From Octopus sinensis (lineage: Eukaryota): DNA of 64,000 nucleotides. A model generated the notes under the pieces. That model made no database searches, had not been told where the DNA came from, and saw nothing but the letters and a program-made list of their open reading frames with translations. The first letter of the stretch is position 1; every line of letters begins with the position of its first letter. This document shows, in pieces, positions 54,540 through 56,024 of the stretch. Where the stretch lies: positions 1,674,001 to 1,738,000 of the forward strand of contig NC_043023.1 of the NCBI RefSeq assembly GCF_006345805.1. The letters run 5' to 3'. The position numbers and the translations under genes were made by a program.

Positions 54540-54610
<71 letters not shown>

Positions 54611-54770
54611 GTGTGGTTATGAAACCTAGCTGTTCTTTCTAGTATGATGAATCCCACGAGTGGATTCCTTACGTGGAAACAGCTGTAAGCCAAATTTGCT
54701 CCAATAAAGGAAAATATATGTAATAAACACTATTTAAACTTGTTTCTTATACATATGTATATATTCATAT

Positions 54771-54802
<32 letters not shown>

Positions 54803-54894
54803 AAGTTAATCCAAACAAGAAAACACAAAGAGAAAACACAACACAAGGACGTGGAACAAATATAGTATTATTGGACGCTCAGGAAAGAAGGAGG

Positions 54895-54930
54895 GATTAA
54901 CATTTCGAGCGGAGCTCTTCGTCGGAAACA
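54895..54930 (-). ncRNA. Degenerate minimal hammerhead motif
   Basis: guuu CCGACGA a gagc-ucc-gcuc GAAA u GUU aauc; U4 mutated. Confidence 0.4.
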
Positions 54931-55405
54931 TAGGAGAAGGAAAGATACAGAGAAGGGAAGACAGAGGAATATATACATATGTATAAGCAACAAGTTTAAA
55001 TAGTGTTTATTACATATATTTTCCTTTATTGGAACAAATTTGTCTTACAGCTGTTTCCAGTAGTCATTATAAGAATAATTATACCTATAACTACCACTTG
55101 AAATAGCTGTAAGGCAAATTTGCTCCAATAAAGGAAAATATATGTAATAAACATTATTTAAACTTTGTCTTATATATCACACTGTGTAAAAACCAGTTTG
55201 TGTGGAGCCCATATACAGATTTACAATATAGAATTATGGTGAACTGTAGCCTTGGAACCTTCCAAAAGATTACCTAGAGTTCTTCACTAATCTAAACGAT
55301 ATTCTTAGCCTGGTGTGTGCCAACAGAGAGCTTATGAAGTATTTTGACCGGATTGATAATCTCTGACTATTTGTTATGCTTTAAACACACACACACACAT
55401 ATGTA

Positions 55406-55457
<52 letters not shown>

Positions 55458-55861
55458 CATATCAAAGGGAAATGGAAATTAATAGAAATTTTCACTTCCA
55501 GTGGCCTAGTATGTAAAAATTTAGTCCAAAGACTATGTATTACTCATAAAACACAGTGTACATTTAAACACATAAGGAATCCACTCGTGGGATTCATCAT
55601 GCTAGAAAGAGCAGTTAGGTTCCATAACCACATATATATATATATATATATATATATGAAAAAACAAGTCAAGATAGAAAATGCTAAAATAATTTTATAA
55701 AGAACATTTCAGAACTTGTGGGTTCGAGGTCGTTGTGTAAACAAGAGAGACAGAGAAAGGCAGAAACAAGGAAAATGCCACTTGTAGTTGAACACTATAC
55801 AAATATTCTTTTAAAAAAACCTTTTCTTTTAATTTTTCTAAATTTAATTATTTAATCGTTA

Positions 55862-55898
55862 CAGTTGAAAAGGTCTCAAATGACTGAAACTGGTACTG
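55862..55898 (+). ncRNA. Minimal hammerhead motif with U3-A8 core (UUGAAAA)
   Basis: cag UUGAAAA gguc-ucaaau-gacu GAAA cug GUA cug; adjoins the right arm of the inverted repeat 55651-55712/55896-55958. Confidence 0.6.
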
Positions 55899-55980
55899 AA
55901 ATGTTCTTTATAGAATTATTTTAGCATTTTCTATCTTGACTTGTTTTTTCATATATATCAACTCGTGTGTTCCTTTTCAC

Positions 55981-56024
<44 letters not shown>

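Follow-up and report, generated by a model that had tools for sequence, protein, structure and literature searches.

The window, i.e. the whole stretch of 64,000 nt analysed here (Octopus sinensis, NC_043023.1, positions 1,674,001 to 1,738,000), carries on its plus strand at 55862..55898 a minimal type I hammerhead with a U3-A8 core and a GUA triplet, assigned by descriptor match and family comparison and predicted to cut between 55895 and 55896. Helix I is formed by 55862-64 and 55896-98, followed by the core UUGAAAA (55865-71, with U3 at 55865 and A8 at 55870), helix II (55872-75/55882-85) and the GAAA stretch (55886-89); in the fold, CGUU/AAUG extend helix I past an A.A mismatch (55857..55903). 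The 37-nt sequence, its coordinates, core and triplet are as given in a preliminary description of this DNA. In the following, +1 denotes the first base after GUA (55896), and negative positions lie upstream of the predicted cut. The motif was the sole match of a minimal-hammerhead descriptor in the whole 64 kb, and an Rfam search returned no hammerhead family among its matches, the gathering threshold not being reached. A degenerate pattern of the motif produced 2,065 exact matches genome-wide and none for a reversed control; thus, the motif is not a chance occurrence. Taken by itself it is ordinary, and both motif and element belong to known kinds.

The motif resides in a 5′-truncated, inverted-arm copy of a Penelope-like retrotransposon, placed between (TA)n target tracts at 55632..55657 and 55985..56021; family copies sit in (TA)n as well. 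The tail-less left arm (55650..55712, minus strand), identified by its arm match, runs from the inner reverse-transcription start at about +63 back to +1, and one-arm tails are found in other copies too. It is followed by one extra A (55713), which on comparison with family copies is either a non-templated base or a later mutation, and by a 24-nt piece of the element in left-arm orientation (55714..55737, minus strand), which corresponds to about -183 to -160 from the cut and is present upstream in copies L024, L026 and L027. A 3-nt microhomology seen in the sequence (55735-55737) joins this piece to the right arm (55735..55987, plus strand), which is the 3′ part of a pseudo-LTR, 87-98% identical to family copies, and extends from -161 through the uncut ribozyme to a 29-nt tail (55959..55987, plus strand). 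This tail is present on one arm only and, judged by the family copies and by the mechanism described in PMC11167929, lies between two reverse-transcription start sites. Over 66 nt (55650-55715 versus 55893-55958) the arms are 97% complementary, and the match stays unbroken as far as 55712, which faces 55896. The preliminary description had the inverted left arm stop at the predicted cut; this applies to the unbroken match, but beyond the extra A another 24 nt of antisense element follow. In a pattern search this exact internal junction occurred a single time in the genome, and L005 contains a separate, similar jump from +1; a non-autonomous subfamily sharing the jump was therefore rejected. 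Splicing was likewise rejected as the source of the jump, since a spliced joint was looked for in four contig sets guessed to be RNA and none was seen there. An AG at 55863-55864, closing a pyrimidine tract (55845-55864) that ends at the 5′ strand of helix I, resembles a splice acceptor and is kept in both subfamilies; for the D. virilis Penelope, a splice acceptor or intron end was described at helix I (PMC4209133).

The stretch proved to be a high-copy repeat in the genome, and in the twenty motif pairs examined inverted arms flank an ORF. Full elements have one ORF with reverse transcriptase (RT) and GIY-YIG domains upstream of the pseudo-LTR part in which the hammerhead is located; the 5′-truncated window copy is devoid of it. 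In L062 and L072 the ORFs scored above the cut-off for PF00078 and just under it for PF01541 (21.6 bits, E 3e-4, cut-off 22.6), and a CX4CX2C linker connects RT and GIY-YIG endonuclease. The family is characterized by inverted arms, a 29-nt tail on one arm and a (TA)n target, and the ORF of L069 starts about 25 nt past the tail. A pseudo-LTR, an inverted 5′-truncated arm and a 30-40 bp tail at one end are hallmarks of Penelope-like elements (PMC8557442), and the tail has been accounted for by two internal start sites (PMC11167929). By its sequence the host is thus identified as an EN+ Penelope-like element with an ORF encoding RT plus, at the C-terminal end, a GIY-YIG domain, a pseudo-LTR, an inverted 5′-truncated arm and a one-end tail; the Cys linker and the microsatellite target point to the Neptune or Nematis type, two clades that they do not tell apart. 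A non-LTR retrozyme, in which non-coding units of 170-400 nt, each bearing a hammerhead, are repeated in tandem, was rejected, as the motif is part of an inverted-arm element that is coding and exceeds 4 kb. In an arm-length survey, which was poorly de-duplicated, many arms (L142, L165, L170, L051, L060, L153) ended in a zone that lies roughly 150-185 nt 5′ of the cut (55714-55745 in the window); this zone may be the transcription start of the pseudo-LTR promoter.

Core statistics were collected from the 103 parsable copies out of 114. U3-A8 was present in 95/103 copies, UUGAAAA in 92/103, GAAA in 94/103 and UA in 100/103, and in four runs of four organisms no variant of U3 or A8 reaching at least 5% was listed. 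The core is thus conserved across the family. The exchange of C3 and G8 for U and A with the pair kept, pointed out in the preliminary description, holds for the family at large, but it is an already published variant, known from the Cercyon Penelope elements of Schistosoma mansoni (Cervera and De la Pena 2014, PMC4209133). Helix III read CCGG in 87/103 copies and CTGG, as in the window copy, in 5/103. Pair 10.1-11.1 of helix II was G-C in 44, G.U in 27 and A-U in 21 of the 103 copies, a distribution that reflects subfamilies and not independent events. With its 3-8 pair, G5, A6, A9, G12-A13-A14 and an NUH triplet the family motif qualifies as a minimal type I hammerhead for which cutting is predicted.

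The window copy deviates from this consensus. Position 55891 is T, against C in the family, resulting in CTGG and loss of the ACCGGT palindrome, and pair 10.1-11.1 is a G.U; T at 55891 was also the minority state in the four runs of four organisms. The preliminary statement that all three helices form was too strong, as helix III of the window copy, consisting of 2 bp and a 2-nt loop, was scored impossible in the monomer by ViennaRNA and the lowest-energy fold was an alternative hairpin with CAGUU paired to AACUG. The ACCGGT palindrome is a signature of dimer-acting type I hammerheads, and two family copies paired via it in a cofold, a feature that the window copy with its CTGG lacks. Its own cutting is likely weakened by the loss of the palindrome.

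Arm ends were mapped by a break test with an anchor downstream of the cut and a demand for non-family letters upstream, for which a capture of 42% of breaks was assumed. From 1,396 anchors 81 matches were obtained and 76 loci were classified by script; small indels and deletions below about 30 nt (25 rows by script) were excluded, and arms of the same insertion as well as duplicates were merged by hand. The pile-up of truncations at GUA, for which the preliminary description had proposed to align family copies, was indeed observed: 8 of 43 distinct breaks, spread over 28 positions, fell at +1 (window copy included; 9 in the unmerged script tally), 5 at +2 and 3 at -1. The mean of the other positions was 1.3 breaks, placing +1 about 5-fold above its neighbours (Poisson P = 4e-4 for at least 7 breaks at +1, window copy left out). 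In a control window from -9 to -60 (1,464 anchors compared with 1,396 at the cut, 76 matches, 70 classified) at most 3-4 breaks per base were counted after aligning subfamily coordinates, and breaks clustered at -30 to -34. Arm ends at +1 are in real but modest excess and amount to about 1-2% of arms (8 junctions divided by the assumed capture of 0.42 and by 1,396 anchors), whereas about 98% read through the ribozyme. Breaks into (TA)n, classified partly by eye, peaked at +14 and +6, with 2 loci only at +1. In a second family of the window the same test, evaluated by eye on a small set, placed 1/15 breaks at +1, and a sister subfamily gave 8 matches only, one of them at +1 by eye and at -4 by script.

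With a wider anchor, 7-8 breaks were found at +1 and 7 at -11, and +2 was also raised (92 classified among the 100 matches listed, of 109; the set overlaps the first one). Judging from the -11 peak and the raised +2, local sequence or stalling at helix II therefore also makes hot spots. One explanation would do entirely without self-cleavage: arm ends would collect where the enzyme halts on reaching the foot of the folded motif or following A-runs, microhomology would set the junctions, and the window boundary would be one such stall. In line with this, the -11 peak lies at the foot of helix II in the same TTTCA context, breaks cluster at about -30 to -34, 12-nt deletions between TTTCAGT repeats recur among the matches listed, and about 98% of arms read through. 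However, among the matches listed no break fell at -12, which corresponds to +1 in the copy of the heptamer 12 nt upstream, and stalling accounts neither for U6 joins that are precise to the base in six families differing in their +1 sequence nor for a junction that coincides exactly with the cuts of two different hammerheads (see below). We regard stalling as improbable. Because 8 breaks at +1 stand against a background of 1.3, the left-arm boundary of the window copy probably marks a cut RNA end, which is not provable.

U6 snRNA was a recurrent partner at the cut. In L204 its 3′ half (Rfam RF00026, 56 bits against a threshold of 44) directly adjoins +1. A pattern open to other registers recovered 8 U6 arms at 6 loci, 8/8 at +1, and a ninth, mutated arm is present in L478; every arm in which U6 meets the window family thus joins exactly at the cut (9/9). 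Three of the 6 loci have the junction on both arms, and at most 5 independent events are represented, because L472 and L474 have an internal junction in common. A U6 3′-end pattern matched 281 times in the genome, and by eye none of these matches joins the window family away from the cut. Most dispersed U6 3′ ends are attached to a small number of SINE-like repeats, at positions that recur and with ragged extra bases (7 examples); template jumping onto U6 is thus common here without any ribozyme. About 30 U6 copies arranged in tandem with a common downstream flank (L448-L470, C1:141.83-141.96 Mb) probably represent true U6 genes.

When 20 non-SINE-looking U6 joins were inspected and intact copies of the partner families were looked up afterwards, five coincided exactly with the cuts predicted for other hammerhead families. 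These were a C3-G8 hammerhead with a GUU triplet (L481), three U3-A8 hammerheads (L479; L480, with GCAA for GAAA; L482, with a GUU triplet), and an A3-U8 hammerhead with a GUA triplet (L484); where the triplet ends in U, the register of the join could shift by 1-3 bases. L485 is a counter-case with the U6 join about 45 nt downstream of its hammerhead cut, and 14/20 joins had no hammerhead tied to them. Altogether, 16/17 U6 arms share one register, seven letters past the CCA of U6 and then +1 without added bases (15/17 were recovered by script), and the junction is present on both arms also in three loci of other families. The GCAA family (L511-L522) is a relative of the window family in which every copy shown has GCAA for GAAA and helix I is weak, and L480 joins U6 at its GUA on both arms. 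The A3-U8 family (L535-L546, L319), which includes G3 variants, has the U6 join at its GUA.

The catalytic fold is a poor match for some of the exactly joined families, in particular those of L480 (GCAA for GAAA, weak helix I) and L482 (almost no helix II). This would suit a host- or element-encoded protein endonuclease that recognizes a hammerhead-shaped fold or the ACCGGU palindrome and makes the 5′-OH end, as would the reports that minimal hammerheads cut poorly alone (PMC4209133) and that the anole one cuts only together with protein (PMC11167929). On the other hand, the 3-8 pair covaries between families (U-A, C-G, A-U), and in the anole element cleavage was abolished by core mutants but not by endonuclease mutants (PMC11167929), which makes an endonuclease very improbable.

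Besides U6, 5′ products of other hammerheads were found at +1. L175 (both arms) and L198 have, joined to +1, a sequence running up to the GUC cut of a different hammerhead family; of this donor family, 14 copies were seen intact, and these continue past GUC into their own helix I. The donor copies L548-L560 have the core CCGAUGA and a GUC triplet, are 93-96% alike to the query piece and include some inverted pairs. The partner in L287 ends in a hammerhead-like GAAAC..GUC, recognized by motif only. Rfam searches with the partners in L175, L287 and L184 returned sub-threshold hairpin matches or none. Further partners at +1 were a tRNA-type SINE cut internally (L200, both arms), short hairpins (L184, L082), the element itself (window copy, L005, L179, L189, L410) and (TA)n (L173, L350). 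The +1 excess together with the joins of U6 and of other hammerheads exactly at the cut supports, at the family level, the earlier suggestion that the arm boundary may record a cleaved RNA end. In L181, +1 is joined to sequence about 330 nt downstream, where the ORF of the element itself starts, which would fit self-closure of a cut fragment or a backward jump of the enzyme.

Since U6 and cut-to-cut joins sit at the cut, we favour self-cleavage in vivo followed either by ligation of cyclic-phosphate RNA, which we infer to be of the RtcB type, or by template jumping. Cleavage in vivo as such is very likely; that the U3-A8 hammerhead cuts a small share of the element RNA at GUA, with the 5′-OH end recorded in the genome, we consider likely with good confidence from the junction sequences. 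Only a minority of transcripts would be cut, most templates being uncut and copied through. Reverse transcription would start 63 or 92 nt downstream of the cut, giving rise to two arms with the tail on one. The 3′ cleavage product still contains these start sites, so it could be copied alone, yielding an arm end at +1, or after joining to another RNA. On cut RNA the enzyme would run off at +1, whereupon the cDNA end may join the other arm or target DNA, or jump to another template. In the window copy, the left cDNA likely ran off a cut RNA, gained one base and re-primed about 160 nt upstream, and the right cDNA was likely made on an uncut template. For cutting, dimerization of two RNAs and/or the protein of the element is likely required; that a dimeric enzyme unites two RNAs and so enables the dimer fold is speculation.

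Hammerhead cleavage yields a cyclic phosphate and a 5′-OH end. Some cut RNAs were likely first ligated, 2′,3′-cyclic phosphate to 5′-OH in an RtcB-type reaction, to U6 or another hammerhead's 5′ product, after which the chimera would have been copied from both primers. U6 ends in five U and a cyclic phosphate, which RtcB joins to 5′-OH (PMC6789731), and RtcB ligates hammerhead products in vitro (PMC7229834). Alternatively, the ribozyme cuts but the chimeras arise without RNA ligation, the enzyme running off the cut 5′ end and jumping to the 3′ terminus of either U6 or a second cut RNA. LINE-type enzymes in general jump onto U6 (PMC4476161), the genome contains hundreds of U6-SINE joins, and the window copy, L005 and L189 jump from +1 into other element parts. 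The uniform register of 16/17 U6 arms without added bases contrasts, however, with the raggedness of the 7 U6-SINE joins compared. Moreover, the same junction on both arms in three window-family and three other-family loci requires either two identical jumps or one pre-joined RNA, and a cyclic-phosphate end is expected for the RNAs that form the precise joins. Hence, jumping is the less likely source of the chimeras, and we moderately favour ligation.

In a broader version of the ligation scheme, Penelope minimal hammerheads, including those with cores long regarded as crippled (U3-A8, A3-U8, GCAA), would cut in the germ line. The host would ligate the 5′-OH product, in which the start site is kept, to any cyclic-phosphate RNA including the cut 5′ halves of other ribozymes; RNA parts would thereby be shuffled between unrelated elements, and U6 junctions would serve as a genome-only activity assay. 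Towards this generalization we lean only slightly.

The octopus element resembles the metazoan Penelope min-HHRs (PMC4209133) in its type I topology, pseudo-LTR location, short palindromic helix III, short helix I and U3-A8 covariation, and likewise in the opposite-strand pairs 100-700 bp apart and the mostly truncated copies. It differs in its helix II of 4-5 bp and in the absence of a bulge after A9. Only low in vitro activity was described for min-HHRs, and in vivo evidence is stated as absent in the accessible text of that study; the function of Penelope hammerheads has been called unclear (PMC8557442). With Poseidon PAc of Anolis carolinensis (Frangieh et al. 2024, PMC11167929) the octopus element shares two internal starts bounding the tail, extension of both target strands, an AT-rich target, a hammerhead just upstream of the start sites and uncut RNA as the main template. 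Unlike PAc, it has a Cys linker of the Neptune/Nematis type and an ORF start downstream of the tail. The anole Penelope enzyme starts inside its own RNA on both target strands and the hammerhead cuts only with protein (PMC11167929). As a counterpoint to our reading, ribozyme mutants of the anole element still inserted in vitro and, in the accessible text of the same study, RNA-seq reads starting at the cut are reported as missing, whereas in the octopus genomic junctions mark the cut.

The U6 joins are reminiscent of the U6/LINE-1 chimeras (Moldovan et al. 2019, PMC6789731) and of the U6/LINE and U6/SINE chimeras (Doucet et al. 2015, PMC4476161) with respect to the U6 3′ end with five U, the sense join to the 3′ part of a retroelement and the insertion as one unit. 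U6/LINE-1 chimeras have been attributed to RtcB ligation; in L1, however, the junction is variable and the nuclease is described as not known (PMC6789731), whereas the octopus junction is fixed at a predicted ribozyme cut. Furthermore, compared with the L1 chimeras, the carrier is a Penelope element, the join is present on both arms and hammerhead products of other families also act as donors. The accessible text of Doucet et al. (PMC4476161) has 0 mentions of Penelope or ribozymes. As in metazoan non-LTR retrozymes (Cervera and De la Pena 2020, PMC7229834), where a host ligase (RtcB) joins hammerhead products, ends made by hammerheads would be joined here; in retrozymes the join circularises one RNA, whereas in the octopus unrelated RNAs are joined, as known from DNA alone.

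Searches of a paper library returned no report of an in vivo cutting footprint, of U6 joins at Penelope cuts or of cut-to-cut joins. Base-exact junctions in six families would constitute a record of germ-line cutting, to be set against the low in vitro activity and the lack of RNA ends at the anole cut. The junctions also name the cut bond for hammerhead variants that descriptors miss, and they offer a cheap test for any genome, namely to gather U6 retrocopies and read the adjoining sequence. If true, cut-to-cut joining of two ribozyme families would give new non-autonomous elements and retrozymes a direct way to arise.

Further minimal hammerhead families, several of them U3-A8, were noticed in the flanks of L043, L046, L188, L005, L018, L277, L096 and L029. 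Within the window, nested inverted-arm repeats in (TA)n occupy 54604-55640 (54604-54675 with 55569-55640; 54674-54766 with 54967-55059; a perfect fold-back at 55078/55079) and are probably the ends of other Penelope-like elements. The minimal-hammerhead descriptor detected no hammerhead in these neighbouring inverted elements; one half of a hammerhead may be present at about 54676-54687 as a GAAA-palindrome-UA motif. On the minus strand at 54895-54929 lies a worn minimal hammerhead with a C3-G8 core carrying U4C and a GUU triplet, part of a non-coding repeat of about 200 nt (element at about 54801-54966), and it is at the cut of this family that U6 is joined in L481.
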